Origin: Candidatus Omnitrophota bacterium
Lineage (GTDB): Bacteria; Omnitrophota; Gorgyraeia; Zapsychrales; Fredricksoniimonadaceae
Direction: 5' to 3'
Assembly: GCA_903860135.1 (NCBI GenBank)
Contig: CAIOPG010000009.1
Location: 175,805-239,804 of the forward strand
Length of the DNA: 64,000 bases
Position numbers and translations under genes: made by a program. This document shows, piece after piece, positions 27,081-47,348 of the stretch. Positions within the stretch are counted from its first letter, which is position 1; the number at the start of each line of letters is the position of its first letter. The notes beneath the pieces were generated by a model. The model was given only the letters and a program-made list of their open reading frames with translations. It had not been told where the DNA came from and did no database searches.

Positions 27081-27092
27081 TATAGCGTCACT

Positions 27093-27839: not shown

Positions 27840-27841
27840 GC

Positions 27842-28474: not shown

Positions 28475-28476
28475 AA

Positions 28477-30389: not shown

Positions 30390-30401
30390 ACCATTCCAAA
30401 A

Positions 30402-30818: not shown

Positions 30819-30836
30819 TACTTACCCCATTTCCAA

Positions 30837-31256
30837 TTAATTCTTTAATGTAGAGAAAATACCGCCCTTGGTTTTTGTAACAGTTCCCGCAGGGGCATTC
30901 AGGGTAAGCGTGATCGTATCAGCAACTCCTGCACCACCTTTTAAAGTAGCTGTCGCACCGCAAGCAGATGCATTCGCACATTCAGTAGCGGTAAATGAAT
31001 AGGTAAAATTACTTGATGCCGTTGGAAATGAATAGCCCGATATTGCTGTTACATTATTACATGCCGTATAATCTTCACTGTTCTGAATATAACATTCCTG
31101 GACTTTGCGCATCAAAACACCAAGCTGCATATAAGCCTCTGCCGCTTTGGCAATATTCACCTGAGCGCTAAGACGCGGCAGTGCTACTGCGGCCAAAACA
31201 CCAATGATGATAACAACAATGATGATCTCGATTAGTGTAAAACCCTTTTTTTTCAT
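30837..31256 (-). CDS. Major-pilin-like type IV pilin, tandem copy 2 (about 5 aa differences from copy 1)
   Basis: MKKKG|FTLIEIIIVVIIIGV..; near-identical to copies 1 and 3. Confidence 0.75.
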   Translation of the reverse strand: MKKKGFTLIEIIIVVIIIGVLAAVALPRLSAQVNIAKAAEAYMQLGVLMRKVQECYIQNSEDYTACNNVTAISGYSFPTASSNFTYSFTATECANASACGATATLKGGAGVADTITLTLNAPAGTVTKTKGGIFSTLKN

Positions 31257-31313
31257 ACATTTCCTTTTTTAGTGTTTTATTAGTATGTTCCTGCATTAAT
31301 AATATTTTTGGAA

Positions 31314-31730
31314 TTAATTCTTCAAAGTTGAAAAAATACCACCCTTTGTTTTTGTAACGGTTCCCGCAGGGGCATTCAGCGTAAGCGTGATAACATCCGC
31401 CGCCGCACCACCTTTTAAAGTAGCTGTCGCACCGCAAGCAGATGCATTCGCACATTCAGTAGCGGTAAATGCATATGTAAAATTACTCGATCCAGTTGGA
31501 AAGGAATAACCAGATATCGCTGTTACATTATTGCATGCCGCATAATCTTCACTATTCTGAACATAACATTCTTGGACTTTGCGCATCAAAACACCAAGCT
31601 GCATATAAGCCTCTGCCGCTTTGGCAATATTCACCTGAGCGCTAAGACGCGGCAACGCTACTGCGGCCAAAACACCGATAATGATAACAACAATGATGAT
31701 CTCGATTAGTGTAAAACCTTTTTTTTTCAT
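31314..31730 (-). CDS. Major-pilin-like type IV pilin, tandem copy 3
   Basis: Same N-terminus; substitutions clustered in the variable region (ECYVQ, DYAAC, PTGSSNFTYAF, GGAAADVITL). Confidence 0.75.
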   Translation of the reverse strand: MKKKGFTLIEIIIVVIIIGVLAAVALPRLSAQVNIAKAAEAYMQLGVLMRKVQECYVQNSEDYAACNNVTAISGYSFPTGSSNFTYAFTATECANASACGATATLKGGAAADVITLTLNAPAGTVTKTKGGIFSTLKN

Positions 31731-31787
31731 ACATTTCCTTTTTTAGTGTTTTATTAATATCTTCCTGAATTAAAAATATTTTTAAAA

Positions 31788-32222
31788 TTAATTCTTCAAA
31801 GTTGAGAAAATACCCCCCTTTGTTTTTGTAATCGAACCAGCTGAAATATCCAGCTTAAGAGTGATAACATCCGCAGCGTTCGCATTGGTTCCACTGAATG
31901 AAGCTTGACCTACACAATTATTAGCATCTGGACACAGAGAAGAATTAAAATTATATGTAAAATTAGGAGTTACTGGAAATGTATAACCTGATAGAGCTGT
32001 CACCTCGTTGCATCCCGCCATGATGTCACCATTTTGAATATAACATTCCTGGACTTTGCGCATCAGAACACCCAGTTGCCTATAGGCCTCAACGGCTTTT
32101 GTAGTATTAACCTGATTCGTAACACGAGGCATAGCTATCGCTGCTAAGACTCCAATAATTATAACAACAATTATTACTTCAATCAATGTAAACCCATTTT
32201 TATACACGTATATCCTACCCAC
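31788..32222 (-). CDS. Major-pilin-like type IV pilin, diverged copy 4
   Basis: MGRIYVYKNG|FTLIEVIIVVIIIGVLAAIAMPRV..; shares AYxQLGVLMRKVQECYIQN and the C-terminal ITKTKGGIFSTLKN with copies 1-3 but has a diverged central region. Confidence 0.7.
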   Translation of the reverse strand: MGRIYVYKNGFTLIEVIIVVIIIGVLAAIAMPRVTNQVNTTKAVEAYRQLGVLMRKVQECYIQNGDIMAGCNEVTALSGYTFPVTPNFTYNFNSSLCPDANNCVGQASFSGTNANAADVITLKLDISAGSITKTKGGIFSTLKN

Positions 32223-32281
32223 ATGTTATCTGTATACAAATATGACATATTTAAATAAATAAAGCGAATATAAATAATTAA

Positions 32282-33508
32282 TTATCCTCCGGTAGATAAA
32301 GAAAGTATAGGTAGAAACATCGCGATAACAATTAGACCTATTACACCACCCATGATAACAAGCATAACGGGTTCAATAAGAATGCTGAATCGCTTCAAAA
32401 ATTCTTCAACATTAGCTTTATAATATATGGCGACATTATTCAACATCTTGCCAAGCTCACCGGTTTCCTCGCCAACACGGATCATCTGCACCGTCATCGA
32501 AGGGAAAAATCCACTTCTTTCCATTGGATCTGCCAAAAGCTGCCCCTCACGTACGGCTTCACGCACATTTCTTATAACTTCCGCACAAACCACATTATCC
32601 ACCAGTCTCTCCGATATCTCCAAAGAATAAAGAATGGGGACACCGCTTTCCATAAGGGTGGACATTTGAGATGTAAACTTCTCAATTACAATTAATTTTA
32701 TCATACCACCGAAAATAGGAACTTTAAAAAGAAAAGTCTCAAATTGCTTTCTTCCAAGAGGTGTTTTAATGTAATTCATGAAAAGAAAAATGCTTCCGGC
32801 CCCTCCAGCAATAAGTATAAAAAATCTCTCTTTCAATAATTTGAAAATTGACATCATTATGACCGTGATAGTCGGGAGCTTGATATCCATATCAGAAAAA
32901 ATACGTTCAAATGTAGGCCCGACAAAAAGAGCGAAAAACAAAACAGCTCCGATACAAATAAAACAAAGAACCATCGGATAAACAAGGGCTCCTATAATAG
33001 TAGACTTGAACTTGGCTGTATCCTCCATATATTGTGTCAACTTGTTGAGAACTTTCGGTAATGTACCAGATGCTTCACCAACCTCAATAAGACTGACCCA
33101 AAAAGCAGTAAACACCTTGGGATATTTTGAAATAGCGCTACTGAAAGTACGACCCTGTTCAACATCTGTGACTACCGCCTCAATGATGACGGTTAACCCA
33201 CGACTTTCCAGCTGAGAGCTGATGATCTTGAGCGATCGCATTAACAAAACACCTGCTCCCATCATCGCAGAAAGTTGACGCGCAAAAGAAACAACATCAT
33301 TTAATGAAATATTATTGTGCGAAAACACCCGCTTCTTTGCAACTGACGTCACAGGCTGTTGATTCTCAACAAACTGTTTTACAGCGGTTACAAAAAGCCC
33401 TTTTTGCTGTGCAAACTTAACAGCCTGCTGATCATTAATGGACTCTACAACCTCATTAAATACATGCCCTGAATTATCTTTAGCAGTAACAAGAAATTTG
33501 GCCATCAA
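32282..33508 (-). CDS. pilC: Type IV pilus / T2SS platform protein (GspF/PilC family)
   Basis: 408 aa; two T2SSF repeats, three TM helices, typical PilC N-terminus. Confidence 0.9.
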   Translation of the reverse strand: MMAKFLVTAKDNSGHVFNEVVESINDQQAVKFAQQKGLFVTAVKQFVENQQPVTSVAKKRVFSHNNISLNDVVSFARQLSAMMGAGVLLMRSLKIISSQLESRGLTVIIEAVVTDVEQGRTFSSAISKYPKVFTAFWVSLIEVGEASGTLPKVLNKLTQYMEDTAKFKSTIIGALVYPMVLCFICIGAVLFFALFVGPTFERIFSDMDIKLPTITVIMMSIFKLLKERFFILIAGGAGSIFLFMNYIKTPLGRKQFETFLFKVPIFGGMIKLIVIEKFTSQMSTLMESGVPILYSLEISERLVDNVVCAEVIRNVREAVREGQLLADPMERSGFFPSMTVQMIRVGEETGELGKMLNNVAIYYKANVEEFLKRFSILIEPVMLVIMGGVIGLIVIAMFLPILSLSTGG

Positions 33509-33523
33509 TTTCCCCAGATCAAT

Positions 33524-35233
33524 TTATATAACAATAGATAAAATTTCCTCAAGGCTCGTGACACCTTCTTCAACCTTCTTCATCCCAACTTCAAAAAGTG
33601 TCGCCATTCCAGCTTTAGATGCTGCGTCCTTCAATTCGTCATAGGAAACATTGTTACCGATCATACGCCGTATAACATCATTAATGGCAAGAACCTCTGA
33701 TACGACCATGCGTCCCCTGTATCCGGTGTGCCCGCATTTATCGCACCCTTTAGCGCGATAAATCAAATCGGTAGACAACTTGATAGACCCCAGATCTTCC
33801 GGCCTCGGTTCATAGGGCTCTTTGCAATCGGCGCATAACTTACGCGCTAAGCGCTGGCTCACAATCATCGTTAATGACGGTGTTAATAAATATGAGGGGA
33901 CACCTATATCCATCAAGCGGCTTATCGCTGACGGTGCGTCATTGGTATGCAGTGTTGAAAGGACAAAGTGACCTGTTAATGCCGCACGCACACATATCTC
34001 TGCTGTCTCAAGATCACGTATTTCACCAACCATAATGATATCCGGATCCTGTCGAAGAAACGATCGTAACGCCTGTGCAAATCCAAAGCCAATATCAGGA
34101 CGCACATGAACCTGGTTAATTCCATCAATGCGGAACTCAACAGGATCTTCTGCTGTCATAATATTCTTGGTGCGATCAAAAACTTCAGAAAGAGAAGAAT
34201 AAAGGGTCGTCGACTTACCACTACCCGTAGGTCCTGTTATAAGAAAAAGACCATACGGAACTTTAAGTGCTTTACGGATGAGTTCTAACTGGGACGCATT
34301 AAATCCAAGCGTAGCCAAATCAAGTTTTACTGCATTCTTATCCAGGATACGCATAACCACTTTCTCTCCCCAAACGGTAGGAACGGTGGACACACGCAGA
34401 TCAACAACACGGTTTTGATCAAACTTTACAGAAATACGCCCATCCTGCGGCAATCGCCTCTCGGCAATGTCAAGCCTAGAAATGATCTTAATGCGCGATA
34501 CGATCGAAGCATGAAGATGTTTTGCCGGCGGAGGGATTTGATAAAGATCACCGTCGATACGATAACGAAGTTCGATCTTGTCCTTAAAAGGTTCGATATG
34601 AATATCACTTGCCCGGTCATCAATAGCCTGCCTGATAATAAGATCCACAAGCTTGATGATCGGCGCTTCTTCGGCTGTTGCGATCAACCTGTCAAGACTT
34701 AACTCCGACTCAGATTTATCATCACCGGATGTTGAGAAATTACTCGAGTCATTCTGCGCTCTTTCAACCGCCTTTCCCCAAGCACCACCCTCATCGGCCA
34801 GATAAAACCGCTCCAATGATTTTAGAATATCGGTACGTGTCGCAATGACAAAGTTTATTTCACAACCAGTCATCTTTTTCAAATTATCGATCATAATAAG
34901 ATCAAATGGATTAAAGATCGCGCATGTCAGTGAATTACCATTCCGATTAAGTAACAATACAAGATTATCTACAGCATACTGATACGAAATAAGCTTTTCA
35001 AGGCCCTGCCCTTTTTGAGGATTCAATAGGCCTGAAGCTTCGGAGGCATATGGAATAAGAAGCTGTGTCCCAAGAGCCACAGCCAAGTCGCTTTCATTAA
35101 TAAATCCCATTTTGACCAAAATTTCTCCGACATGACTCTTGTCGGTCTTTTGGGCATCTATAGCAGACTGGAACTGGGCTTCGGTAATTAAGCCCTTTTT
35201 AATAAGTATTTCACCAAGCTTTAACCGTGCCAT
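33524..35233 (-). CDS. pilB: Type IV pilus assembly ATPase (GspE/PilB family) with two N-terminal MshEN/T2SSE_N-like repeats
   Basis: Walker A ITGPTGSGKSTTLYS; Asp box, Walker B and His box region; tetracysteine motif CADCKEP..CDKCGHTGYRGR. Confidence 0.9.
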   Translation of the reverse strand: MARLKLGEILIKKGLITEAQFQSAIDAQKTDKSHVGEILVKMGFINESDLAVALGTQLLIPYASEASGLLNPQKGQGLEKLISYQYAVDNLVLLLNRNGNSLTCAIFNPFDLIMIDNLKKMTGCEINFVIATRTDILKSLERFYLADEGGAWGKAVERAQNDSSNFSTSGDDKSESELSLDRLIATAEEAPIIKLVDLIIRQAIDDRASDIHIEPFKDKIELRYRIDGDLYQIPPPAKHLHASIVSRIKIISRLDIAERRLPQDGRISVKFDQNRVVDLRVSTVPTVWGEKVVMRILDKNAVKLDLATLGFNASQLELIRKALKVPYGLFLITGPTGSGKSTTLYSSLSEVFDRTKNIMTAEDPVEFRIDGINQVHVRPDIGFGFAQALRSFLRQDPDIIMVGEIRDLETAEICVRAALTGHFVLSTLHTNDAPSAISRLMDIGVPSYLLTPSLTMIVSQRLARKLCADCKEPYEPRPEDLGSIKLSTDLIYRAKGCDKCGHTGYRGRMVVSEVLAINDVIRRMIGNNVSYDELKDAASKAGMATLFEVGMKKVEEGVTSLEEILSIVI

Positions 35234-35242
35234 AATTTAATC

Positions 35243-36745
35243 CTATTTCTTTTGTACACTCATAGAGTCCATGGCAGAACGAATAATGCTCTGTCTTATC
35301 ACACCGCTACTTTCGCGAATTCCAAGATCAGCAGGAACAGTGTCAACAACGAAATCACTGCCAGGATCCATGACACGGGGGGTAATAAAAATAAGGAGCT
35401 CCCTGTCTTTGGTAGTCGTAGTATCGTGACGGAACACACGCCCGAGAAAAGGAATGTCTCCTAAGACCGGAAGTTTTGTCTGAACTTTTTGTTTCTCAGA
35501 ACGTAACAATCCTCCGAGAACAACAGTTTCACCCGAATGTATCCTCATTTTAACCTTAGCACTACGGATCTCTGTGTCCTTAAAAGTCACCCCGCTATAA
35601 GTTCCACCCAAACGCGCAACAACCACGCGTGGTGAAACAGCCAGTAAAATATCACCTGTCATCAAATTTAACTGAGGCGTGACCGTCAACGTAATCCCCG
35701 TCTCAACTCGTTCAGGTTCAACAGTGGATCCTTGCGTTATTGTCGCCGCTGCCGTCACTTTAACACCAATAGCTTCCGACGCAGTAATCTTAATCTGTGC
35801 CGTTTCATTATTCATGGTCCAAATTCTTGGGCGCGCTAAATTCCTAGCATCTGTTGACGTCTTTAAAAACTGTAACATAGCCGAAAAAGCATTTCCGCCC
35901 ATCGCGCCCTGTGAATACGTAACCTCTGTGCCCCCCTTACTAAGTGCATTCTTTTGGTCAAGAGGGAAATAAAAACTCCTCCCTCCCAGTCCTTTGAAAT
36001 CATATAAGGTGTTGCCAAACTTAACACCTATCTCATCAGCTACTTCCTTAGAAACATCTATCATCTGGACTTCAATCAATATCTGGGCAACCGGCACATC
36101 CAGTTTAGCCAATGTTCGTTCGATCAAAGGAAAATTTGTATCTTCATCAGAAATGATCAGGCTGTTGGTCCGTGAATCTTCAGCGATCTTGGCCGAAGCT
36201 GTTAATACTGTTTTCAAAATATCCACGAGAGCAACGCTCGTCGTTACTGTATTGCTCCCAGCACTCGACGATCCATTACCCCCCCCTTCTTCTGCGGTAA
36301 TTCCGAATGTTGATTGCAACTTTGAAGATGCAACAGTAGCATATTTTAAAGGATAAACACGCGTTATGATATTCTTTTCAGCCTTGATATTATCGATCAT
36401 CAAAATATTGTCATTATTATCATATGAATAAGAAAGTCCATTTGCCGTCAAAATTTTTTTCAAAGCATCCTCAACAGGAACAGCATCAAGAAAAAGTGTT
36501 ATAGGGTCGGTTTTAACAGCGTCTGAAACAATAAAATTGGCACCTATCTGACGAGAGAAGGCCTTCAAAACATCCCTGATATCTGCATTCTTGAAATCAA
36601 GGGAAACAAGTTGAGAATATTGTGGAAGTATAAAACTGTTCTGACTACCAGCTGAAGTAGTGGCAGAAAAAACTTGAGTAAATAAAGAAATTTGAATAAT
36701 ATTGGTAAGTAAAAATATAAATAAATATTTATTTTTTAAACCCAT
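35243..36745 (-). CDS. pilQ: Secretin (PilQ/GspD family), compact 500-aa form with signal peptide and N0-like domain; no AMIN domains
   Basis: N0 motif FKNADIRDVLKAFSRQIGANFIV; C-terminal secretin signature VVLGGLLRSEKQKVQTKLPVLGDIPFLGRVFRHD..ELLIFITPRV. Confidence 0.8.
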   Translation of the reverse strand: MGLKNKYLFIFLLTNIIQISLFTQVFSATTSAGSQNSFILPQYSQLVSLDFKNADIRDVLKAFSRQIGANFIVSDAVKTDPITLFLDAVPVEDALKKILTANGLSYSYDNNDNILMIDNIKAEKNIITRVYPLKYATVASSKLQSTFGITAEEGGGNGSSSAGSNTVTTSVALVDILKTVLTASAKIAEDSRTNSLIISDEDTNFPLIERTLAKLDVPVAQILIEVQMIDVSKEVADEIGVKFGNTLYDFKGLGGRSFYFPLDQKNALSKGGTEVTYSQGAMGGNAFSAMLQFLKTSTDARNLARPRIWTMNNETAQIKITASEAIGVKVTAAATITQGSTVEPERVETGITLTVTPQLNLMTGDILLAVSPRVVVARLGGTYSGVTFKDTEIRSAKVKMRIHSGETVVLGGLLRSEKQKVQTKLPVLGDIPFLGRVFRHDTTTTKDRELLIFITPRVMDPGSDFVVDTVPADLGIRESSGVIRQSIIRSAMDSMSVQKK

Positions 36746-36749
36746 ACTA

Positions 36750-37301
36750 TCAATCTTTCAATAATAACTTGTAAAGAAATTCGTTGTAATCTATTTCCAC
36801 ACGGCCTTTGCGGATAGCCAAAATCCTTACCCCCTCTGATCTATCCCCCAAACCCAATATATTTCCATTTAAAATAACCATTGGATTCCTTGTTTTATAA
36901 AATATTCCTGTCACTTTCAGCACAGGCAACGAGGCTATTGATAATTTCCTTACAGGTTGCGCTGAGGGTATCGCAACAAAGTGCTTTATTTCAGGAATAA
37001 CAGCAACTATCGGTCTATCTACTACTGGCTTAACTAAATTATCAGCTTCCTTGCGAAAATCTTTACTAACAAGATCTGGTCTGGCTTTAAACGGATGGAA
37101 AGGCTCCCCAAGAGACTCTATCATCATTTCAAACGGAAGCTTATTAGTCTCATTGGCGTAAGAAAGAGTTGAATTAAAATGAAATAATTGAAAACTATAG
37201 ATAAAAAGAATATTATACATTAAAAAAAGATGATGCCTACTTCTTTTTAAAATTTTTATGTTCATTATCTTCCACCAGTTGAAGCAACGAAATGGTAACA
37301 T
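36750..37301 (-). CDS. Putative PilP-like inner-membrane lipoprotein/anchor (weak)
   Basis: N-terminal hydrophobic anchor, then a C-terminal beta-rich segment (VTGIFYKTRNPMVILNGNILGLGDRSEGVRILAIRKGRVEIDY) resembling the PilP secretin-binding domain. Position between pilO and pilQ fits. The true start is uncertain; the ORF overlaps pilO-like by up to 65 nt. Confidence 0.4.
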   Translation of the reverse strand: MLPFRCFNWWKIMNIKILKRSRHHLFLMYNILFIYSFQLFHFNSTLSYANETNKLPFEMMIESLGEPFHPFKARPDLVSKDFRKEADNLVKPVVDRPIVAVIPEIKHFVAIPSAQPVRKLSIASLPVLKVTGIFYKTRNPMVILNGNILGLGDRSEGVRILAIRKGRVEIDYNEFLYKLLLKD

Positions 37302-37866
37302 CCAGCGTCATCGCATCCGTCTGGACTCCTGAATTAACCGGATTGTACTTAATCAACAGGCTATCCAATTTGATCATGTACCCGGAAGATTCCATATCAT
37401 GAACAAATAATAGCATATCCTTGACATTAAGGGAAGAAGCACTAAAACTCATACAAATAGAACGAAAAAAACCATCATTGCTAGTCTGCAATGGATTAAA
37501 AGCATCAATTGTAATTCGTCGCCGCGTGGCACGCCCTGTAACATAAGATATAAAATCAGCCTTGACCAATCCCAAAGGCATCTTGCACATATAATCAGTC
37601 AGATATTTGTTGCTTTGCTCAAGATCCTGGATAGGCTGTCTTTTTGATTGCAAAATCTTTTTTCTCGACGCAAGAGACTGATATTGATTAAAATTTTTAG
37701 TTGTAAGAAAAACTATTACACAAAATCCCAATAAAACAATCAAAGAATTAGTCGCTAAAACTAAATTCTGATTTACATAATGGTTACAATCCTTAATAAA
37801 TTTTGAAGGATTATTTAGATATATTTCGAAATTCTTTAAATCATCAAGATTCATTTCGCCTCGCAC
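37237..37866 (-). CDS. Putative PilO-like protein (single TM, coiled coil, C-terminal ferredoxin-like region)
   Basis: 209 aa, bitopic topology and position right after the PilN-like module; no strong sequence motif. Confidence 0.45.
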   Translation of the reverse strand: MRGEMNLDDLKNFEIYLNNPSKFIKDCNHYVNQNLVLATNSLIVLLGFCVIVFLTTKNFNQYQSLASRKKILQSKRQPIQDLEQSNKYLTDYMCKMPLGLVKADFISYVTGRATRRRITIDAFNPLQTSNDGFFRSICMSFSASSLNVKDMLLFVHDMESSGYMIKLDSLLIKYNPVNSGVQTDAMTLDVTISLLQLVEDNEHKNFKKK

Positions 37867-39455
37867 GTAATCGAAAACGCTGTGACTTTTCTATTATCAT
37901 ATTCTCGAACCTGTAAAGAAACAATCTTAATTTGTGTGAAATTAGTGGCGAACAAATTATCGCTATTTAAAGCATTAAAGAAATGATTAACCCTTTCAAA
38001 TTCTATATTGTTGTCCTTCAAAGACACATACCCCGAAAAGGTCATTGCCGTCTTGGTCTGAAGTGAATAATAATCAACCTCTTTGTTCCCGGGCTCAGGG
38101 ACCTTGCGCGCCGAAACAGGCTCATCTTTAAAAGACAAACTAACAGACTCAAGCCAAAATCCGGATGGCAGTCGTTTGACCAGCCGCACCAACATCTTTG
38201 TCGCCCGTGCATCGAAAGGCAATGATTTCAATGAAAATAACTTCTTGACATTCTTCATTTTCTTCTGAACGGCGTCTGACTCATCTATATCAACGTATTC
38301 CCCGATCTCCTGCTCAAGATTAACAACTTCCTGTCTAAACTTAGACAGAAGCTGATCAGCAAAGAATGCAACAGAAAAGATCAGTGTAAAAACACCGGCC
38401 CCCACCGCCAAGGGCAAAACCAATGCTTGCCTCCTCTGGTCAATTTCAACTTGCTTGAGAGAAACCTGCTGTTTGGAACCTTCAAACAAATTAAAGTCAA
38501 TAACAGTAACCACTTTACTCATCATGGCCACGCCGTAGGCATACACAGCCGCCATTGTATTGCAATCATTGTGATCTACAAGTCTAAAAATATCAACAAT
38601 CTCAACATTGACCCCGAGTTCCTCTCCCATCTTGTCCCACAAAGCATTATTTCCGCCAATGGATATGGCCACCATTCTCTGGACTTCCTCCCCGCCATAC
38701 TGACGCAAGAAGAATTCGGAAGAAATACGGATCTCATTGAAAACTTTGGAACGTAGCTCATCATCGATCTGAAGAGTGCCAACACCCTGATGCACACCTC
38801 CCTGAAGATTAAACTCACGGATAAACTTGACATACCCTTTTTCACAAATAAGGAGTTCTCCGATATAACCATCGACATAAACAATCGCCGTTAATTCATC
38901 GGGATCAACGATCTTTCTAAAAACCAATGCACGGTAAAGACTAGCCGACGCCGGTTCACTGTAAACAACATTTATACCTGCTTGCATTAAAGCATCCGCA
39001 TGTTTTTCAAAAACATCTTTACGGATAGCAACAAATATAATGCCAATCTGCCGCGGATTACTTCCTAGAATATTCGAAGGAAAATATGTGTACGACAACT
39101 CATCAATTGGGAAAGGAATATACTTCTTGGCTTCGAAGATAACAACATCCTGTATCTCGCTTGACTTCATCCACGGAATACTGAACCAGCGAATAATAAT
39201 ATCTTTTGAAGGGATAGAAAGAAATGTTTCCTGCGTTGAAAAACCTTTATTTCGAACAGATTTTTGCAGTGCATCTAGAATCTGCATATCATGCGGTAAA
39301 GACTTCTTGTCAGCAGTGGAAGCCACGTCTTCCGGCGATACAAAAGGAACAAATGTCCCTATGGCGGGTGCGTTGCTCTCCAGTTGAACCAGCGTGAATC
39401 CGCTTGATCCCGAGTAAACCCCTAATCGCTTCTCACTGGCCATACCCAACCTCAT
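37851..39455 (-). CDS. pilMN: PilM-PilN fusion protein (actin-like ATPase-fold PilM followed by TM + PilN-like periplasmic domain)
   Basis: N-terminal GVYSGSSGFTLVQLE (PilM/FtsA-like phosphate-1 region); ~330 aa actin-like fold; then TM ALVLPLAVGAGVFTLIFSVAFF and a coiled-coil plus ~170-aa PilN-like tail. Alternative start ATG 39441-39443 has a GAGG SD. Confidence 0.7.
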   Translation of the reverse strand: MRLGMASEKRLGVYSGSSGFTLVQLESNAPAIGTFVPFVSPEDVASTADKKSLPHDMQILDALQKSVRNKGFSTQETFLSIPSKDIIIRWFSIPWMKSSEIQDVVIFEAKKYIPFPIDELSYTYFPSNILGSNPRQIGIIFVAIRKDVFEKHADALMQAGINVVYSEPASASLYRALVFRKIVDPDELTAIVYVDGYIGELLICEKGYVKFIREFNLQGGVHQGVGTLQIDDELRSKVFNEIRISSEFFLRQYGGEEVQRMVAISIGGNNALWDKMGEELGVNVEIVDIFRLVDHNDCNTMAAVYAYGVAMMSKVVTVIDFNLFEGSKQQVSLKQVEIDQRRQALVLPLAVGAGVFTLIFSVAFFADQLLSKFRQEVVNLEQEIGEYVDIDESDAVQKKMKNVKKLFSLKSLPFDARATKMLVRLVKRLPSGFWLESVSLSFKDEPVSARKVPEPGNKEVDYYSLQTKTAMTFSGYVSLKDNNIEFERVNHFFNALNSDNLFATNFTQIKIVSLQVREYDNRKVTAFSITCEAK

Positions 39456-39511
39456 TGCTTTTATAAAAATGAATACTTTTAGCTAATAATCAATCGCAAG
39501 AAACGTATGCA

Positions 39512-39841
39512 TCAGTAACTAACATCCATCGTGAATGCCCTTGTTGCCCCTGGTCCTCCGCCGGCTACTTGGGTATAATGAACCGAATATGTTGTTCCGT
39601 CAACATATTCAGAGAAATCCGTAAGTGTTGTCGAACCACCGGCGTAAATCTCGCGTGCCCACCATAAAGCTTTTTTGGCAATAAGTTCCGCCTGAAGATG
39701 CTTTCTTTCACGTTCGGAAATAAGTGCCTGTGAATAATTTCGCGATAACACACCTAAAACCAAGATTGACATAAGCATAACAGCCGCAATAACTGTCAGT
39801 AAAATTACCCCCCGCTCACTACCGTATTCTCTTCTAATCAT
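39512..39841 (-). CDS. PilX N-terminal-domain-like minor pilin (109 aa with the start chosen at ATG 39839-39841)
   Basis: MIRREYGSERGVILLTVIAAVMLMSILVLGVLSRNYSQ matches the PilX_N pattern (RG-x-x-L-hydrophobic helix-LRTS/SRN). 8-nt overlap with the upstream Zn-ribbon gene. The longer ORF-track version (39952) would overlap that gene by 119 nt. Confidence 0.45.
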   Translation of the reverse strand: MIRREYGSERGVILLTVIAAVMLMSILVLGVLSRNYSQALISERERKHLQAELIAKKALWWAREIYAGGSTTLTDFSEYVDGTTYSVHYTQVAGGGPGATRAFTMDVSY

Positions 39842-40073
39842 GAATTCCCTCCTCAAGATAACTCTGACAAAGTGGACAACGCACAACCTCAGTCTTTCCG
39901 TTACTGATAATGATATGGCTGCAATAGGGGCATTGCCTAACAATACCCGCACTTGATGCCTCCCTGTTTACGCCATCATCCACAACGGCATATTTAAACC
40001 ACATAAACCCAAAAAAAATAATCATGACAGAAAGACAAAGACTTACGCCCAAGGCAATATCTATCGTGATCAT
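39834..40073 (-). CDS. Small bitopic membrane protein with C-terminal CxxC-x17-CxxC zinc ribbon (79 aa), function unknown
   Basis: TM IALGVSLCLSVMIIFFGFMWF, then VRQCPYCSHIIISNGKTEVVRCPLCQSY. Linked by overlapping stop/start codons to both neighbours (ATGA upstream, 8-nt overlap downstream). Confidence 0.4.
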   Translation of the reverse strand: MITIDIALGVSLCLSVMIIFFGFMWFKYAVVDDGVNREASSAGIVRQCPYCSHIIISNGKTEVVRCPLCQSYLEEGIHD

Positions 40074-40498
40074 GGCAACCTCAAACGAAGATCTAATGGT
40101 GCTACAGGAACATCCTCAACAACTGCCACAGAAGGTTCATCGCGATCCTCAGGAACAACCCTTACACCGGAAAAATGAAATATATCCTTATCCTCCGGTG
40201 GCATACTTCTATAAAAAGATTCAGGTTTCTCTGCCTGCAAGGAGCGCAACCACCCTCCTGATAAGTATAATGGTACGGTACTATCATTAATCTTTTCTTC
40301 AACTTGCAGGACTGAAACTTCATGACGCGAAGGAATAACTTCCTGCGGGCTTAAAATATTGCCCAAGAAGACAACATCGAGTTTGTACGTGTTGTTAACA
40401 GCTCCTTTAAATGAAAAGATCACAAAAGTTAAAGCGATGGCGTGCATGATGCCCGCCGTTAATACCCCTATCATCGGAGAATGCCACTTCACTAGCAT
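40070..40498 (-). CDS. TonB/TolA-like N-terminal module (His-containing TM anchor plus Pro/Glu-rich extended segment); no recognisable TonB C-terminal domain
   Basis: 142 aa: IGVLTAGIMHAIALTFVIFSF (TM with conserved-position His as in TonB SxxxH), then P/E/V-rich low-complexity to the end (..PEDRDEPSVAVVEDVPVAPLDLRLRLP). Occupies the TonB/TolA position after exbB-exbD; TAATG overlap with exbD. Confidence 0.35.
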   Translation of the reverse strand: MLVKWHSPMIGVLTAGIMHAIALTFVIFSFKGAVNNTYKLDVVFLGNILSPQEVIPSRHEVSVLQVEEKINDSTVPLYLSGGWLRSLQAEKPESFYRSMPPEDKDIFHFSGVRVVPEDRDEPSVAVVEDVPVAPLDLRLRLP

Positions 40499-40896
40499 TA
40501 CTTCTCACGATCCGTAGCAATATTAATATGCTCGATCCCCATGCTGCGGGCAAGATTCAGGATGTCCACAACACGACCAACCGATGCCCGGTGATCCGCC
40601 TTGATCAAGATGGCTCTGGCATTGCCGCCAGGAAATGCTAAAAACTCTTTAAGTTCACCCAGCGTGATCAAATGATTATTCACATACACAACATTCTCGC
40701 CCGTCACAATGATCGTCAAACTTGACGGAGAGGCTATGTCGCTTGTCACTCCTTTGGGCAAGGCGATCTTTAAGAACGATGATTTTGAAATAAATAAAAT
40801 AAACGCTATAAAACCCAATAGAATAAATAATACATTCAAAAAAGGAAAGAAATTAAATTTTGGCACACATAATTTCAAATGCCTACGGAAATCCAT
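40498..40896 (-). CDS. exbD: Biopolymer transport protein ExbD/TolR family
   Basis: 132 aa; N-terminal TM FNFFPFLNVLFILLGFIAFILFI, periplasmic ExbD fold with ..IKADHRASVGRVVDILNLARSMG.. Confidence 0.8.
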   Translation of the reverse strand: MDFRRHLKLCVPKFNFFPFLNVLFILLGFIAFILFISKSSFLKIALPKGVTSDIASPSSLTIIVTGENVVYVNNHLITLGELKEFLAFPGGNARAILIKADHRASVGRVVDILNLARSMGIEHINIATDREK

Positions 40897-40899
40897 GCC

Positions 40900-41568
40900 C
40901 TAAGCCCCTCCGGCTAAAGGAACATTAATAATCTGCGTCATTTCACGCACAAGCGTCGAAGCAACCTGCTCCATCTGCAGAACAGTACCCTCGATCACCT
41001 TAAGAAAATACCGGTGCGCGATCATGGCAAAGATCCCGACAAGGGAAGCCGCCGCTGTTGTAATAAGCGCTTGCCCAAGACCAGCCGTAACATCCATCAA
41101 ACTGGCAGGATTTACAGCTACCGCACGAAGCTGTATTGTATGCAATAACCCACACAAACCAACCACCGTCCCCAGAAGGCCGATCAAAGGCACTAATTGA
41201 GCCATAAATACTAAAAGATCCAACCCTTTTTCCATCGCGCGTACCTCATACCTGGCCGCATCTTCCATCGCCACTTGTATCTCTGGTGCCGATTGACCAA
41301 AACTCAACAATCCTGCTTTTAAAATTCGTGCCATCGAAGAATCTGCGGCATCACACGCTGAAAGGGCACCCATGGTATTATTGTTTTGAATAAAACCGAT
41401 CACTTGAATAGAAAGGACAGCAATACCTTCGCGCACTTCTCCTAGAAACAAGAATCTTTCAATGACCAAAGCCGTAACACTGACGGAACATATCAAAACA
41501 GGAACCATGACAGGACCACCTGTCAATAATAATCGCCATGCGCCAATCCCGGTTACAGCATCGATCAT
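40900..41568 (-). CDS. exbB: MotA/TolQ/ExbB proton-channel family protein
   Basis: 222 aa, 3 TM helices; C-terminal LGLLGTVVGL..F motif region characteristic of TolQ/ExbB. Confidence 0.8.
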   Translation of the reverse strand: MIDAVTGIGAWRLLLTGGPVMVPVLICSVSVTALVIERFLFLGEVREGIAVLSIQVIGFIQNNNTMGALSACDAADSSMARILKAGLLSFGQSAPEIQVAMEDAARYEVRAMEKGLDLLVFMAQLVPLIGLLGTVVGLCGLLHTIQLRAVAVNPASLMDVTAGLGQALITTAAASLVGIFAMIAHRYFLKVIEGTVLQMEQVASTLVREMTQIINVPLAGGA

Positions 41569-41586
41569 TTAGGCATCCTTCGGCTA

Positions 41587-44070
41587 TTATTTCTTCCCGC
41601 TGCGTTCTTGGATCAACTCAATCCGTTCATTGGCAAACTTACTCTCGTCAACCTTCAAGTCAACAACCTTCCTGTACGCAGTAATCGCCTTTTCTAATTC
41701 ATTATTGTTTTCAAAAATTCTAGCGATACGCAAATATGCTTTTATAACCCATGGGATTTCTTTCGAATAAATATACGGTATCTTGAAATAAGCCTCTAGT
41801 GCCTTGTCAGATTCATTCAACACCTCGTAAACATCTCCCACAGAAAATTGAATCCCGGCACTGGTTACCTGGCTTTCACCTTTATCCGCTTCGATAGCCT
41901 CCGCGTATACAAACAACTCTTCGTTAAATTTCTTCTCCCGACGGTATATCTGCGCTATCTTCATTAAAGCATCACGTTTATACTGCGGACTTGTCGCTAT
42001 AATACCATGGTATGTTTCAACCGCCTTGTCAGTATCCAGTTCCTTAACAAATATACCAGCAATAGCAATCTTTGCCTTGGGGTAAAGTAATGGATCAATT
42101 TGGGGATCAACCTGCCTAAAATACGCGAGAGCTTTTTCAAAGTTCTCCAAAGACAAATACGCACGACCCAATTCAAAACAAAGAAGACCTTGCTTGACCG
42201 TCTCGGGCAAATCAAACAAGCCCTTCGTATAGAGTTCTACGGCCACCTGATAGAGACCTTCTGTCATATTGTACTGCCCCAGCCACAGAACACACTCGAT
42301 CTCCGCTTCGGTGTGAGGGTAACGATGCACGATATCTTTAAAACGTGCAAGTGCTTCCTTCGTGTCACCCATAGCATCATATGTCTTGGCAAGCCCTACA
42401 TACGCATTCTGGAGTATCTGCTGTTCATCAGGATAAAGCCTAAGCACATCATTAAAGATAACTATCGCCCTGTCAAACTGCTTCAAATTAAAATGCGTCA
42501 TCGCCAACACATAACGGGCTTCCGCCACAAACTGAACCGGAACAACAGGGTCAGAAATAAAAGAGGTCAGTATTTCAACAGCCGTCGCCCATTCCTTTCT
42601 ACGGAAATACGCCAAACCAAGATAATAACGGGATTCAGAAATATACTTACTGCCGGGATAATTAGCTTTTAATGCCTGAAGTGCCAAAACAGCAGCATCA
42701 ATCTTGCCGGATTTAAGAAGCGCAATCCCTAAATAATATTGGACATGATCTTCATAAGGCGTGTCCGGCATTTCATGAAGGATCTTGTCATAGACATCGA
42801 TCGCCTTGTCCATAACGCCAGCCTCCTGATAGGCATCCGCAATCTGGCTATACGCACTCACTTTTATTATCTTGTTATCCGACTTGTCAGCTACCAGCTG
42901 AAACATAGCGACAGCCTTGTCAATATCACCGCTCTTGGAATAAGTCCAAGCTAAACCGAACCTAGCTTTCTCGATCATTTTATCCCGTCCTGCCGCACCG
43001 CTAGAAATAGCAATGATCATCTCATAATCTTTGATAGCGGCCACATAATCATTAACAAGATACCAGGCATTGGCACGCCCCAAATAAGTATCGGCTATTT
43101 TAAGACTCGCCGGAAACCGCGCGATAACTTCCGAATAAATTGAGGCCGCTTCAACATATTTCTCCTGGGCTATAAAAAGACTCGCCTTGGCCAAAAGAAC
43201 ATCTTCTTCGGATACCTTTGCCGCTTTAACCGCAAATTGCGCTTCATCGAACGTCTTTAACGCCTCCACATATTTCTTAAGTTTGATCTGACACCAGCCC
43301 GTCCCGATCAGCGATGCGGCCATCGAAGATGGCGCCGTTGTCAATGATCTGGCTTTCTGATAAGCATCCGAGGCCTTGTCATATTGTTCCAGATTATACA
43401 AAGCCTCGGCCACATTGAATTGGGCTTCATAAAGACGGGTCGAACCGGGATGCCCTGAGATATAATTATTGAAAGCCACAATAGCCGCTTCATACTGAAC
43501 AGCATTGTAGTCACACTCTCCCAGCTTGAACGCGGCATCATCGGACAAGTTGTTAGCAGGAAACTTATCGATCAAGGCCTGGAATATCTTTTTGGCCGAC
43601 ACATAATCTTCCTTCTGAAAATAAGACCAGGCGAGCGAATAATATGCCTGGGGCGCATACAGGGATGCCGGAAAAGCATCAATAACTTGACGGTATTTCT
43701 CTTGGGCTTTGGGAATATCGCCACCCTTGAAATATGTTTCTCCCAACCAGAAAAGAGAGGCATCCTTGTATTCAGGCAACGCTACCAGATCCTTAAAAAC
43801 ATTAAAGGCCTGCACATACTGTTGCTTAAAGAAATAACTTTGCCCTTCGAGCAATCTCGCTTCAACAACTTTTGTGGTTTGCGGGAATTCAGTTAGAAGT
43901 TGATTGACGTAACGCAGAGAAACATCATAAAAACCATCTTCAAATGCGCGCTGGGCTACAATGAAAAGATCTTTCTCATTAGAATCAACAGCAAAAGATG
44001 GTGTCGCAACGATGAGCAACGAAATGCCCATGATGTACAGGATACATTGTAGATTTTTTCTTATTTTCAT
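41587..44070 (-). CDS. Large periplasmic tetratricopeptide-repeat protein (827 aa, signal peptide, no lipobox)
   Basis: Signal peptide MKIRKNLQCILYIMGISLLIVATPSFA; more than 15 TPR-like repeats (W-LG-Y/F-A-F-P patterns). 18 nt upstream of exbB. Confidence 0.75.
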   Translation of the reverse strand: MKIRKNLQCILYIMGISLLIVATPSFAVDSNEKDLFIVAQRAFEDGFYDVSLRYVNQLLTEFPQTTKVVEARLLEGQSYFFKQQYVQAFNVFKDLVALPEYKDASLFWLGETYFKGGDIPKAQEKYRQVIDAFPASLYAPQAYYSLAWSYFQKEDYVSAKKIFQALIDKFPANNLSDDAAFKLGECDYNAVQYEAAIVAFNNYISGHPGSTRLYEAQFNVAEALYNLEQYDKASDAYQKARSLTTAPSSMAASLIGTGWCQIKLKKYVEALKTFDEAQFAVKAAKVSEEDVLLAKASLFIAQEKYVEAASIYSEVIARFPASLKIADTYLGRANAWYLVNDYVAAIKDYEMIIAISSGAAGRDKMIEKARFGLAWTYSKSGDIDKAVAMFQLVADKSDNKIIKVSAYSQIADAYQEAGVMDKAIDVYDKILHEMPDTPYEDHVQYYLGIALLKSGKIDAAVLALQALKANYPGSKYISESRYYLGLAYFRRKEWATAVEILTSFISDPVVPVQFVAEARYVLAMTHFNLKQFDRAIVIFNDVLRLYPDEQQILQNAYVGLAKTYDAMGDTKEALARFKDIVHRYPHTEAEIECVLWLGQYNMTEGLYQVAVELYTKGLFDLPETVKQGLLCFELGRAYLSLENFEKALAYFRQVDPQIDPLLYPKAKIAIAGIFVKELDTDKAVETYHGIIATSPQYKRDALMKIAQIYRREKKFNEELFVYAEAIEADKGESQVTSAGIQFSVGDVYEVLNESDKALEAYFKIPYIYSKEIPWVIKAYLRIARIFENNNELEKAITAYRKVVDLKVDESKFANERIELIQERSGKK

Positions 44071-44127: not shown

Positions 44128-46920
44128 TTAAAGCTGGCGTTGCAGGAATGGACGCAAATACTGACCGGTGTATGATTCCGGGTGTGCCATCAGCCCTTCG
44201 GGAGTACCCGAGAATACCACACGGCCGCCGCGATCCCCACCATCTGGTCCAAGGTCTATGACATGGTCCGCTGATTTGATCACCTCGAGGTTATGCTCAA
44301 TGACAAGGACCGTGTTCCCCTTATCTACCAGCTGCTGAAGGACGCCGAGCAGTTTCTCGACATCAGCAAAATGCAGGCCTGTTGTTGGTTCATCCAGGAT
44401 ATACAGCGTCCTTCCTGTTGAAGGTTTGCAAAGCTCTGCCGCAAGTTTCACGCGCTGAGCTTCCCCGCCCGACAGCGTCGTGGCCGCCTGGCCGATCTTC
44501 ACATAACCAAGGCCAACCTCATTGATCACGCGCAATACCCGGGCAATACGGGGAATGTTGCCGAAGACCTCCAGTGCTTCGCTGATCGACATATCGAGCG
44601 TCTGACTGATATTCCTGCCTTTATATTCAACCTGCAAGGTCTGCTCGTTGAATCGCTGCCCATGACAAACAGCGCATTCCACATGAACATCCGGCAAGAA
44701 ATGCATTTCAATTTCTTTAACCCCGTCCCCCTGGCACGCTTCACAACGTCCGCCTTTAACATTAAAACTGAAACGCCCTGGACCATATCCCCTCAACCTG
44801 GATTCAGGAAGTCCGGAAAAAATAGAACGGATATCCGTAAAGACACCTGTATATGTTGCCGGATTTGACCGGGGTGTACGTCCTATCGGCGACTGATCAA
44901 CGACGATGACCTTGTCAATGGCGTCAAGTCCCTCAAGTTTCCTGTAAGCACCGGATTTCTCGCGGGATCCATAAAGATGACGCGCAAGCGCTTTATAAAG
45001 AACATCATAAACAAGCGTTGATTTCCCTGAACCGGAAACACCCGTTACGCATACAAAAACCCCCAGCGGGATATCAACATCAATATTCTTTAGATTATGT
45101 TCACTGACACCCTTTAAACGGATACAAGCTCCGCGCACAGCGGGCCGCCGTTGTGCCGGGATAGGAATACGGATAGATCCCTTAAGGTATTGCCCCGTCA
45201 ACGAATCTGAAATGGAAAGAATACCGTCAACAGGCCCCGCGTACATGATCTCCCCGCCGAACCGCCCCGCGCCCGGACCGAGATCCACCAGCCAGTCCGC
45301 ACTGCGGATCGTATCCTCATCATGTTCCACGACCACAAGGGTATTCCCCAGATCTCTGAGATCCCGTAAACTTGACAACAACCTTTCATTATCTTTTTGA
45401 TGGAGCCCGATAGACGGCTCATCCATCACATACACCACGCCGACGAGTCCGGAACCCACCTGCGTTGCCAGGCGGATGCGTTCAGCTTCCCCGCCGGATA
45501 GCGTTGAACTTTTACGGTCAAGCGTCAAATAATCCAGCCCCACATTGATACAAAAATCAAGCCGGCGAATGATCTCTTTAAGAACAGGTGCCGCAATGGT
45601 GCGTTCACCCCCCTCCAGTTGAAGCCCCAGAAAAAACTCCCGCGACTCCTGAATGGACATGCGCACGATCTCGGCAATGTTCTTGCCCTCAACAAGCACC
45701 ATCAGGGCTTCTTTCCTCAAACGCCGCCCTTCACACGCAGGGCATGGCGCTTCGGACATGAATTTTGAGATCTCCTCCTTGAGCCAGTCGCTCGGCGTCT
45801 CCCTGAACAAACGCTGGAGATAACCCGCGACCCCTTCAAACTTCTTGCCCCAGATAATGTCTTCGCCGCCAAAAAGAACCCTTTGTTTAAAATCCCGGGG
45901 AAGTTTATTGAACGGCATGGCCGGATCCATATCATAAAGCTTGGCTATTTCACGCAACACCGCCCGATAATACATCATGTATCCCCGCTGGCCCTTGCGC
46001 CAGGGAACAATGGCCGATACCCATGCTTTCTCCGGTGACGTGACCAATGTTTCAACATCGATCTCCATCCTTGTCCCGATACCATTGCAATCAGGGCATG
46101 CCCCATACGGAGAGTTGAAAGAAAATGTCCGCGGCTCAAGCTCCGGAAGATCGATCCCCTCATCGGGAACAGCAAAACTCTCGCTCATGACAAGATCTTC
46201 TGTCCCGTCTGTAAAACCGACAACAATAAAACCCTTGCCGACCCTGAGTGCCGTCTCGACCGAATCTGTCAAACGGGTTTTCACGTCTGGTCTGACTGAT
46301 AGGCGATCTACCACTATTTCGACAGAATGGATCTTATAACGATCAAATTTGATCTTGTCTTGAACATCATAAATATGCCCATCGACCCGTAGCCGCGCAA
46401 AACCCGCCTTGGCCACATCCCTACCGATGTGTGGATAGGTGCCCTTCTTCCCGCGGATATACGGCGCAAGGATATTGATCTTACTGCCCGCAGACAGTCG
46501 TAATATCCGTTCGACCATTTCCTGGGCAGACTGCTTCTCGAGCTTTTGCCCCATATAATAAGGAACACCGATCCTCGCGAACAACAGCCTCAAATAATCA
46601 TAAATTTCCGTCTGCGTGGCCACCGTTGACCTGGGATTACGGCTGATCGTTTTCTGTTCAATGGAGATCGTCGGGCTCAAGCCTTCGATCGACTCGACAT
46701 CCGGTTTCTGCACCTGATCGAGAAATTGGCGGGCATACGCTGAAAGGCTTTCCACATAACGCCGCTGCCCTTCAGCATAGATCGTATCAAAAGCCAGCGA
46801 AGACTTCCCAGAACCACTCAACCCCGTCACAACAATCAACTTGTTGCGGGGAAGCTCAAGGGAAATGTTCTTGAGATTATGTTCCCTGGCATTCTTGATA
46901 ACGATATTATTAAGTTGCAT
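44128..46920 (-). CDS. uvrA: Excinuclease ABC subunit A
   Basis: 930 aa; two ABC modules ([15 protein letters not shown]; [11 protein letters not shown]), zinc-finger Cys clusters, signature LSGGEAQR. Confidence 0.95.
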
Positions 46921-47063: not shown

Positions 47064-47348
47064 TTACTTCTTGCCCTTCTTCGCCACGACCTTCTTCACA
47101 GCCTTTTTCACAGCCTTCTTCTTCTTTCCGCCCTTCACCATGGCAGCAGAAGAAATATCGCCCTGCTTATCGATAAAATAGAGGAAACCAGATTCCTTCT
47201 TAATACCGACCTTGGCAACCTTCTTGGGCTTGCCGCCCTTCTTGTCGCCGCGCGCCATCGCCGCAGAAGAAACATCGCCATCCTTATCAATAAAATAAAG
47301 GAAACCCTTTTCTTTCTTGACGCCAACTTTAGCAACTTTCTTAGCCAT
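47064..47348 (-). CDS. Small Lys-rich protein with two tandem ~40-aa internal repeats and a histone-H1-like KKAVKK tail (94 aa)
   Basis: Repeat 1 KKVAKVGVKKEKGFLYFIDKDGDVSSAAMARG; repeat 2 KKVAKVGIKKESGFLYFIDKQGDISSAAMVKG; tail KKKKAVKKAVKKVVAKKGKK. The duplication is visible at the DNA level. A standalone gene with its own flanking hairpins. Confidence 0.55.
   Translation of the reverse strand: MAKKVAKVGVKKEKGFLYFIDKDGDVSSAAMARGDKKGGKPKKVAKVGIKKESGFLYFIDKQGDISSAAMVKGGKKKKAVKKAVKKVVAKKGKK

Follow-up and report, generated by a model that had tools for sequence, protein, structure and literature searches.

One of the described systems closest to the locus considered here is the polar organelle coordinator PocA-PocB-TonB3 of Pseudomonas aeruginosa. 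The known role of these homologues of ExbB, ExbD and TonB is in the production and localisation of type IVa pili, for which they are required, and not in siderophore uptake; a contact of TonB3 with the N0 domain of PilQ, which resembles the signalling domain of FpvA, has been proposed (PMC5285504). In the TonB2 system of Vibrio, the accessory protein TtpD2, which contains tetratricopeptide repeats (TPR), is essential for iron transport (PMC6957404). The exceptionally short TonB-like protein SjdR (TonB1) of Anabaena has a role outside siderophore transport, and links of TonB paralogues to the localisation of pili and the integrity of the envelope have been described (PMC8597729). In E. coli, Asp25 of ExbD is essential for proton transfer, and ExbD(D25N) and TonB(H20A) are inactive (PMC11658791). 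Here we consider a five-gene TonB-type module that adjoins a type IV pilus operon in a 64-kb stretch of a Candidatus Omnitrophota metagenome contig (257-kb ENA scaffold). This stretch is called the window, and coordinates refer to it unless another locus is named.

The preferred reading, to which we give a probability of about 0.55, is that the five genes are a local copy of a TonB-type operon that has lost its canonical input and output, and that its products probably survive as a scaffold in the membrane, expressed along with the pilus machine. What the sequences themselves show, and what is used below, is homology, phyletic distribution, loss of a domain and changes of residues. A prediction made earlier from the window sequence alone had described these genes as a Ton/Tol-like motor module driven by the proton motive force; the Ton/Tol-like nature of the module has been confirmed.

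Components of the module

All genes of the module and of the pilus operon are on the minus strand. The genes of the module and the adjoining minor-pilin-like gene are listed together with two codons of particular interest (aa, amino acids; ORF, open reading frame; TM, transmembrane).

41587-44070, minus strand: TPR protein, 827 aa, module gene 1 (ORF list, Pfam TPR families)
40900-41568, minus strand: ExbB/TolQ-family protein, 222 aa (Pfam MotA_ExbB)
40498-40896, minus strand: ExbD/TolR-family protein, 132 aa (Pfam ExbD)
40834-40836, minus strand: codon for Asn21 of ExbD, in PFLNVLF (translation and alignments with E. coli ExbD and TolR)
40070-40498, minus strand: truncated TonB-like anchor, 142 aa, gene 4 (TM His, without TonB_C)
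40442-40444, minus strand: codon for His19 of the anchor, equivalent to TonB H20 and TolA H22 (alignment)
39834-40073, minus strand: TM and zinc-ribbon protein, 79 aa, module gene 5 (CxxC...CPxC)
39512-39841, minus strand: PilX/GspK-like minor-pilin-like protein, 109 aa (model architecture, sub-threshold NCBIfam matches)

For all six ORFs, the original description is exactly right in sizes, gaps and stop/start overlaps, and the protein lengths are identical in independent gene calls on the source contig. Going from the TPR gene to pilMN, the first two junctions are gaps of 18 and 3 nucleotides (nt), the next three are overlaps of 1 nt (stop/start), 4 nt (ATGA) and 8 nt, and the last is a 56-nt gap.

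The ExbD-family protein matches Pfam ExbD (PF02472) with 57.6 bits, the cutoff being 25.4. Its Asn21 aligns with the essential transmembrane Asp, D25 of E. coli ExbD and D23 of TolR. The two relatives nearest to the window, L003 and L005 (here and below, numbers with L denote loci), have the same Asn in this column, so that it is conserved among species sharing only 43-51% ExbB identity. The Asp is retained in ExbD of L007, L008, L010, L092 and L094 and of most lineages with a long TonB-like protein. One long-TonB lineage, L012, has Ser in the essential position (PYISVLF, gene at 3529-3924 of that locus), and therefore loss of the carboxylate is not unique to the subclade of the window.

The ExbB-family protein matches MotA_ExbB (PF01618) in its TM2-TM3 core, residues 75-200, with 79 bits against a cutoff of 22.9. 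Among NCBIfam families the best match is TolQ (62 bits, compared to 25 for ExbB); the scores for TolQ and TolR fall well short of their curated cutoffs. The Thr residues of TM2 (GLLGTVVG) and TM3 (ALITT) are retained. The position of E. coli E176 is occupied by Gln, as in most homologues of the Planctomycetes-Verrucomicrobia-Chlamydiae (PVC) type, and the TM3 Pro is replaced by Phe (GIFAMIAHRYF) in the window alone among the aligned homologues. E176 and the Pro of TM3, like the two Thr residues, belong to the conserved TM residues of E. coli ExbB/TolQ and are regarded as functionally relevant. A stator driven by the proton motive force, as originally proposed, is doubtful for this genome, since Asn21 replaces the essential Asp of ExbD and ExbB lacks the TM3 Pro.

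Judging from sequence conservation, the genes of the module are not decaying and are under purifying selection. Comparison of ExbB with that of a 94%-identical strain gives a ratio of non-synonymous to synonymous substitution rates (dN/dS) of ~0.35, without any difference in TM2 or TM3. At ExbB identities of roughly 36-52%, the ORFs remain intact. In the same strain (L096, ExbB gene at 236-892), the C-terminal tail of ExbB, about the last 10 residues, differs from that encoded at 40900-41568 of the window; a frameshift or an indel close to the stop codon could account for this.

Gene 4 encodes what is, by alignment, a protein of the TonB family truncated in the window. The 142-aa protein has no match in Pfam or NCBIfam, and TonB_C was not found in it. 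The transmembrane His19, which corresponds to TonB H20 and TolA H22 in the alignment, is present in all 19 aligned homologues; the Ser of the strict SxxxH pattern is absent from the window protein. The tail is Pro/Glu-rich, predicted to be disordered, and ends with LDLRLRLP. An AlphaFold2 model based on a seven-sequence alignment contains a confident TM helix at residues 8-31 and disorder after residue 46. The aligned His19, the missing TonB_C match and the predicted disorder all agree with the earlier description of this protein as a TonB/TolA-type anchor without a C-terminal domain.

The gene 4 products of sister lineages are 207-278 aa long and end in a TonB_C-like domain. The match of Pfam TonB_C to the long form has 26.9 bits in L013 (cutoff 24.6) and 22.7 bits in L035. 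When the end of the long form was compared with the PDB, seven of the nine weak matches were the C-terminal domains of TonB or HasB (best E 0.058), and hhalign aligned the long form with E. coli TonB at residues 175-224 (E 1.2e-4, probability 55%). Gene 4 of every pilus-fused relative encodes a protein of 131-149 aa, the alignment of which stops before TonB_C. These short forms share the conserved C-terminal motif [VL]x[LM]R[L]xxP. The short-form profile has only 7 matches among 5.8 billion proteins. Two newly found short forms, in L092 and L094, occur in the identical TPR-to-pilin arrangement.

The TPR protein starts with a Sec-type signal peptide (MKIRKNLQCILYIMGISLLIVATPSFA, followed by VD) without a lipobox Cys, and matches TPR_6, TPR_2, TPR_16 and other TPR families of Pfam. 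The NCBIfam family tol_pal_ybgF (TIGR02795) scores 216 bits against it with a cutoff of 90, the score being summed over 9 generic TPR_6-type repeat stretches. For this reason the YbgF match was rejected as a sign of membership in Tol-Pal. The 79-aa product of gene 5 is a single-pass membrane protein with a CxxC...CPxC zinc ribbon, for which Pfam gives zinc-ribbon matches below threshold only. By the positive-inside rule, the zinc ribbon is likely to face the cytoplasm. The family is well conserved and unnamed: all of its 264 word-index matches are annotated as 'hypothetical' or mis-named, and 188 clusters at 50% identity were found at E<=1e-10 among 1.84 billion representatives. The zinc-ribbon gene adjoins the TonB-like gene in the loci examined.

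Orthologues of the TPR protein, 809-850 aa long, head the module in genomes without adjacent pilus genes. Since the module occurs without pilus genes, the TPR and zinc-ribbon proteins are parts of the Ton-like module and not accessories of the pilus or secretin. The proposal that the TPR protein is a scaffold associated with the secretin is thus not borne out.

Distribution of the module and its junction with the pilus operon

A search with ExbB revealed a small clade of 222-223-aa proteins at 39-52% identity, followed by a drop to 35% or less. The alignment of this clade was used to scan one genome per GTDB species, which assigned the window to Candidatus Omnitrophota and yielded 80 loci. These loci were annotated by searching their ORFs with the window proteins and by direct reading. 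The recurring five-gene order is TPR (~810-850 aa), ExbB, ExbD, TM protein (207-278 aa), zinc ribbon (75-79 aa). The module has no adjacent pilus genes in other Omnitrophota (L011, L012, L013, L035, and also L014, where gene 4 is shorter, 185 aa) and in Kiritimatiellota, Verrucomicrobiota and PVC metagenome-assembled genomes (L021, L022, L031, L045, L047, L049, L057). In the cultured Pontiella desulfatans (Kiritimatiellota, L090) it forms a stand-alone operon between divergently transcribed genes; this operon contains neither TolB nor Pal. This phyletic pattern shows the module to be autonomous, with an origin that precedes its link to the pilus.

The linkage of ExbBD with pilin genes is indeed conserved in relatives, in agreement with the original prediction, with direct fusion to the pilus genes and truncation of gene 4 both confined to one Omnitrophota clade of about eight lineages (ExbB identity down to 36%). 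In the neighbour-joining tree of ExbB and ExbD, the short-TonB, pilus-fused lineages are monophyletic with bootstrap 91, and the Asn-ExbD subclade (the window, L003 and L005) has bootstrap 87. Therefore the fusion and the loss of TonB_C trace to one ancestor and should be counted as a single coincidence, not as a repeated correlation.

The zinc-ribbon and pilX-like genes overlap by 4-23 nt in 8/8 fused lineages, whereas the gap between pilX and pilMN is always 56-71 nt. The PilX-like gene is thus, if anything, more tightly linked with the Ton-like module than with pilMNOPQ. In the fused clade, co-transcription of the module with the pilus operon is probable. On the other hand, overlaps and a shared strand have little weight as indications of a functional link, since unrelated genes overlap too: 4-nt overlaps or 2-16-nt gaps join hisD/alaS, alaS/recX, recX/recA, lysA/argH, panC/aspDH and rsmE/last pilin. 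The argument originally made from overlapping stop and start codons is weakened by such pairs as hisD/alaS, alaS/recX and lysA/argH. All ~60 confident genes of the window (1-64000) are on the minus strand. Scans for promoter and terminator consensus sequences at 27-47 kb, giving 52 compared to 42±6 and 22 compared to 18±4 in shuffled sequence, were at the background level and were discarded.

The background synteny is strong. In the loci with looser links between module and pilus genes (L011, L013 and L015, see below), uvrA, panC, aspDH and rsmE are likewise conserved in the surroundings of the module, and from panC-aspDH-uvrA onwards the macro-synteny is conserved equally well as the module-pilus junction. 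In L014 (11773-12437) and L015 (7698-8843), a winged-helix gene of the DUF2582 family, accompanied by cutA in L015, lies between the ExbBD module and a PilX-like ORF. The 133-aa PilX_N-like ORF of L014 was rejected as a homologue of the PilX-like protein; the hidden Markov model (HMM) of the PilX-like protein does not detect it, its hhalign probability is 7%, and the L014 locus counts only as one of similar architecture.

Beyond the module, the window contains pilMN-O-P-Q-B-C and ten pilin genes downstream, present as originally described, and uvrA upstream.

44128-46920, minus strand: uvrA, directly upstream of the TPR gene (ORF list)
37851-39455, minus strand: PilM-PilN fusion (Pfam PilM_2, NCBIfam pilM / Amuc_1101 family)
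37237-37866, minus strand: PilO-like ORF (position only)
36750-37301, minus strand: PilP-like ORF (position only)
35243-36745, minus strand: PilQ secretin (Secretin, Secretin_N, STN/N0)
33524-35233, minus strand: PilB extension ATPase (T2SSE, MshEN)
32282-33508, minus strand: PilC platform protein (T2SSF)
27842-32222, minus strand: ten pilin-like genes (N_methyl), including three near-identical tandem copies at 30402-31730

PilM, PilN, PilQ, PilB, PilC and the pilins are co-located as type IVa pilus machinery, and PilQ has an STN/N0 domain. No TonB-dependent receptor, TolB or Pal was found in the 64-kb window. There is also no PilT or second secretion ATPase in it, as the PilB query revealed no second T2SSE-family ORF. 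On the missing receptor and the missing PilT the original prediction was correct across the window. The remaining genes are housekeeping ones: gatAB, secDF, mfd, his, alaS, recA, dap, arg, rpsI/rplM.

The 109-aa protein at the junction scores 30 bits with the NCBIfam GspK N-terminus (cutoff 130) and 23 bits with ComGG (cutoff 40), and Pfam PilX_N does not match it. AlphaFold2, which folded it as a single sequence, produced a helix at residues 7-67 and three strands, a pilin-like lollipop with a predicted local distance difference test (pLDDT) of 81. A Foldseek comparison of this model with the PDB gave nothing significant, and so the assignment of a pilin fold derives from the model architecture. 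The protein has no Glu5, as in GspK and PilX-type minor pilins. The ATG of its gene (39841) is preceded by the Shine-Dalgarno box GAGGAGG. Thus, of the PilX_N-like minor pilin in the original prediction, the pilin-like architecture is retained in the model, whereas the family assignment has no Pfam PilX_N match and only sub-threshold NCBIfam ones. The other HMM assignments are similarly divided: MotA_ExbB and ExbD matched above cutoff, the zinc ribbon was below threshold and the 142-aa protein had no match.

The three tandem pilin genes at 30402-31730 encode nearly identical proteins of 138-139 aa, and a related fourth copy is at 31788-32222. This looks like a recent duplication of a candidate major pilin.

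The GC content at third codon positions (GC3) is 0.30-0.47 across 25365-44070, in the gene of a 571-aa TPR membrane protein, most pilin genes, pilC to pilMN, the pilX-like gene and the module genes. It is 0.52-0.66 in the flanking housekeeping genes (0.48 in aspDH) and 0.50-0.53 in rsmE and two pilin genes inside the block. The dip was not seen in the relatives L003, L094, L011 and L013. Possible explanations are replacement by recombination or relaxed codon selection. The dip was considered as a possible sign of horizontal transfer, but was not used as one.

The 571-aa protein (25365-27080), encoded between recA and rsmE by a gene of low GC3, is polytopic and has C-terminal TPR repeats. The ORF at 47064-47348 encodes a 94-aa Lys-rich protein that consists of two ~45-aa repeats (KKVAKVGxKKExGFLYFIDKxGDxSSAAM) and has no Pfam match. 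A small ORF (80-107 aa, no Pfam match) is found at the same position between aspDH and uvrA in relatives.

Possible roles of the complex

The following scenario may be suggested. The ancestral state would be an old, autonomous TonB-type operon, typical of Omnitrophota, Kiritimatiellota and Verrucomicrobiota. Its products are a TPR protein of the periplasm, a stator of ExbB and ExbD, a member of the TonB family and a small membrane protein whose zinc ribbon probably faces the cytoplasm. In one family-level clade of Omnitrophota this operon abuts the type IV pilus operon, which begins at the PilX-like minor pilin; in the same clade, TonB_C has been lost, and what is left of the anchor is the TM helix with its conserved His, a linker predicted to be disordered and the short C-terminal motif. 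The Asp of ExbD has been replaced by Asn in the subclade of the window, and TM3 of ExbB has diverged in the window. The complex of ExbB, ExbD, the anchor and the zinc-ribbon protein probably still assembles, since the genes are intact and under purifying selection. It would be unable to perform canonical protonation, TonB_C binding and the pull on an outer-membrane receptor. Most likely it remains as a scaffold of the inner membrane, either static or energised in some other way, that is produced alongside the pilus machine; the role it had originally was independent of pili. As there is neither TonB_C nor the proton-binding Asp, a proton-driven pilus motor is unlikely. Thus a motor that would substitute for PilT and make the pilus dynamic, as had been proposed, finds no support in the window.

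Several considerations weigh against the scaffold. This role is suggested by the features of canonical systems that are missing. Coupling by a different mechanism might tolerate the Asn, or the Asp could be supplied by a second ExbD encoded elsewhere in the genome, beyond the 64 kb examined. Elsewhere in the clade the pilus may have a functional motor linked to it, because five sister species of the fused clade (L007, L008, L010, L092, L094) keep the Asp. The GC3 dip is common to the module and the pilus genes of the window. In L011 and L013, PilB-PilC are encoded ~6.5 kb downstream of the module, past cutA, AmmeMemoRadiSam genes, rsmE and miaB. In L015, which is outside the fused clade, TPR-ExbB-ExbD are followed by a winged helix-turn-helix gene, cutA, a homologue of the PilX-like gene (hhalign 88%), pilins and PilMN; no TonB-like or zinc-ribbon gene precedes the pilus genes there. 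The recurring proximity of module and pilus genes in these three loci hints at something beyond chance.

One alternative is that the short-armed ExbB/ExbD stator is a dedicated energiser or positioner of the pilus and secretin, driven by the proton motive force in the manner of PocAB-TonB3, with the TPR protein as a secretin scaffold, and that it might replace PilT. The direct fusion conserved in eight lineages with the 4-23-nt zinc-ribbon/pilX overlap, the coincidence of TonB_C loss with the fusion, the pilus genes near the module in L015, L011 and L013, and the absence of PilT from the window all argue for it, as does the PocAB-TonB3 precedent (PMC5285504), given the STN/N0 domain of PilQ here. 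However, the module complete with its TPR and zinc-ribbon genes is widespread without pilus genes, and the window has lost the essential Asp of ExbD and the TM3 Pro of ExbB. The fusion and truncation are one event in a single ancestor, overlaps join unrelated genes throughout the window, macro-synteny is as conserved as the junction, and PilT may be encoded elsewhere in the genome. This alternative is doubtful, but far from negligible. A pilus-organising role like that of PocAB-TonB3 (PMC5285504) is, by analogy, plausible, as a minority possibility. The idea that an ExbBD/TonB-like complex may serve type IV pili is itself not new and has its match in that system (PMC5285504). Rather unlikely is the stronger variant, by which a TonB-type complex has been co-opted in this family and is now integral to the type IV pilus machine: the C-terminal motif [VL]x[LM]R[L]xxP would dock on PilQ N0/STN, PilP or the TPR protein, and in this way the complex in the inner membrane would be coupled or anchored to the secretin, without the canonical proton relay in the Asn-ExbD subclade. 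If so, the locus would be a naturally occurring equivalent of PocAB-TonB3, encoded in an operon and equipped with a new zinc-ribbon subunit.

The module could also serve general envelope maintenance of the Tol-Pal type, with TolQ-TolR-TolA-like proteins and a CpoB-like TPR protein, the pilus genes being chance neighbours without any functional relation. Indeed, ExbB has TolQ as its best NCBIfam match (62 compared to 25 bits), the TPR protein scores 216 bits with tol_pal_ybgF, cpoB of E. coli is within the tolQRA-tolB-pal operon, the module is independent of pilus genes in three phyla, and the dense gene packing is uninformative. However, TolQ and TolR score well under their curated cutoffs, the YbgF value sums nine generic repeats, TolB and Pal are in neither the window nor the Pontiella operon, the long gene 4 matches TonB_C and not the C-terminal domain of TolA, and ExbD of the window has no Asp, which TolR also needs. 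The Tol-Pal-type role is improbable. Classical TonB-dependent nutrient uptake, with the module energising transporters encoded elsewhere, is very improbable. It would agree with the canonical order of ExbB, ExbD and the TonB-family protein, with the TonB_C-like domain of the long forms in sister lineages, and with the precedent of a TPR accessory, TtpD2 of Vibrio (PMC6957404); on the other hand, the window lacks the TonB_C domain that binds the TonB box, its ExbD has Asn for Asp, and no TonB-dependent receptor is encoded within 64 kb. Both the Tol-Pal-like role and classical uptake are weaker for this genome because no TolB, Pal or receptor is in the window, the long gene 4 is of the TonB_C type, and both need the Asp.

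If these findings hold, they define an uncharacterised, widespread five-gene TonB-type module of Omnitrophota, Kiritimatiellota and Verrucomicrobiota, present also in the cultured Pontiella. Its zinc-ribbon subunit represents a family without a described function. The loci would form a natural series of systems that are complete, lack the TonB output domain, or lack both the output domain and the ExbD Asp, and such a series could reveal what ExbB/ExbD does without canonical energy transduction. Finally, the fusion with the pilus operon would provide a genomic handle on how Ton-like complexes affect pilus assembly or placement, the question raised by PocAB-TonB3.

Comparison with known systems

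The module resembles ExbB-ExbD-TonB of E. coli in the order exbB-exbD-tonB-like, in the MotA_ExbB and ExbD matches, in the Thr residues of ExbB TM2 and TM3 and in the TM His of the anchor; in addition, the anchors of sister lineages end in a TonB_C-like domain. Unlike the E. coli system, the window has no TonB_C, Asn in place of Asp25 of ExbD, Gln at E176 of ExbB and no TM3 Pro. Moreover, the module is extended by the 827-aa periplasmic TPR protein and the 79-aa zinc-ribbon protein, and no receptor is encoded nearby.

With Tol-Pal (TolQ-TolR-TolA-TolB-Pal-CpoB) the module shares the combination, in one operon, of a stator, an anchor with TM His and a periplasmic TPR protein with putative YbgF/CpoB-type repeats, and the best NCBIfam match of the ExbB-like protein is TolQ, although below threshold. 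However, TolB and Pal are absent from the module, the TPR protein is three times as long as CpoB and is encoded first in the operon, and the long anchor matches TonB_C.

The TonB2 system of Vibrio (TtpB/TtpC/TtpD), too, adds accessory proteins, one of them with TPR, to those of a TonB operon. It differs in that TtpD2 has 425 aa and is encoded downstream of tonB2, in the absence of a zinc-ribbon partner, and in that it performs true iron uptake with a complete TonB. SjdR of Anabaena belongs to another lineage and has another architecture; it is likened to the anchor by description only.

In P. aeruginosa, tonB3 is encoded apart from pocAB, and neither is known to lie within the pilMNOPQ operon. 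PocAB-TonB3 is not known to have a TPR or zinc-ribbon partner, and the module considered here is ancestrally independent of pili. Both are Ton-type complexes linked to type IV pili, PocAB-TonB3 by its described role (PMC5285504) and the module by the position of its genes in the fused clade. Literature searches revealed no earlier description of an ExbBD-pilus linkage in Omnitrophota. What is new here, as far as comparison of sequences can tell, is a TonB/ExbBD system with a zinc-ribbon partner, a truncated TonB and an Asn-containing ExbD, fused to a type IV pilus operon.

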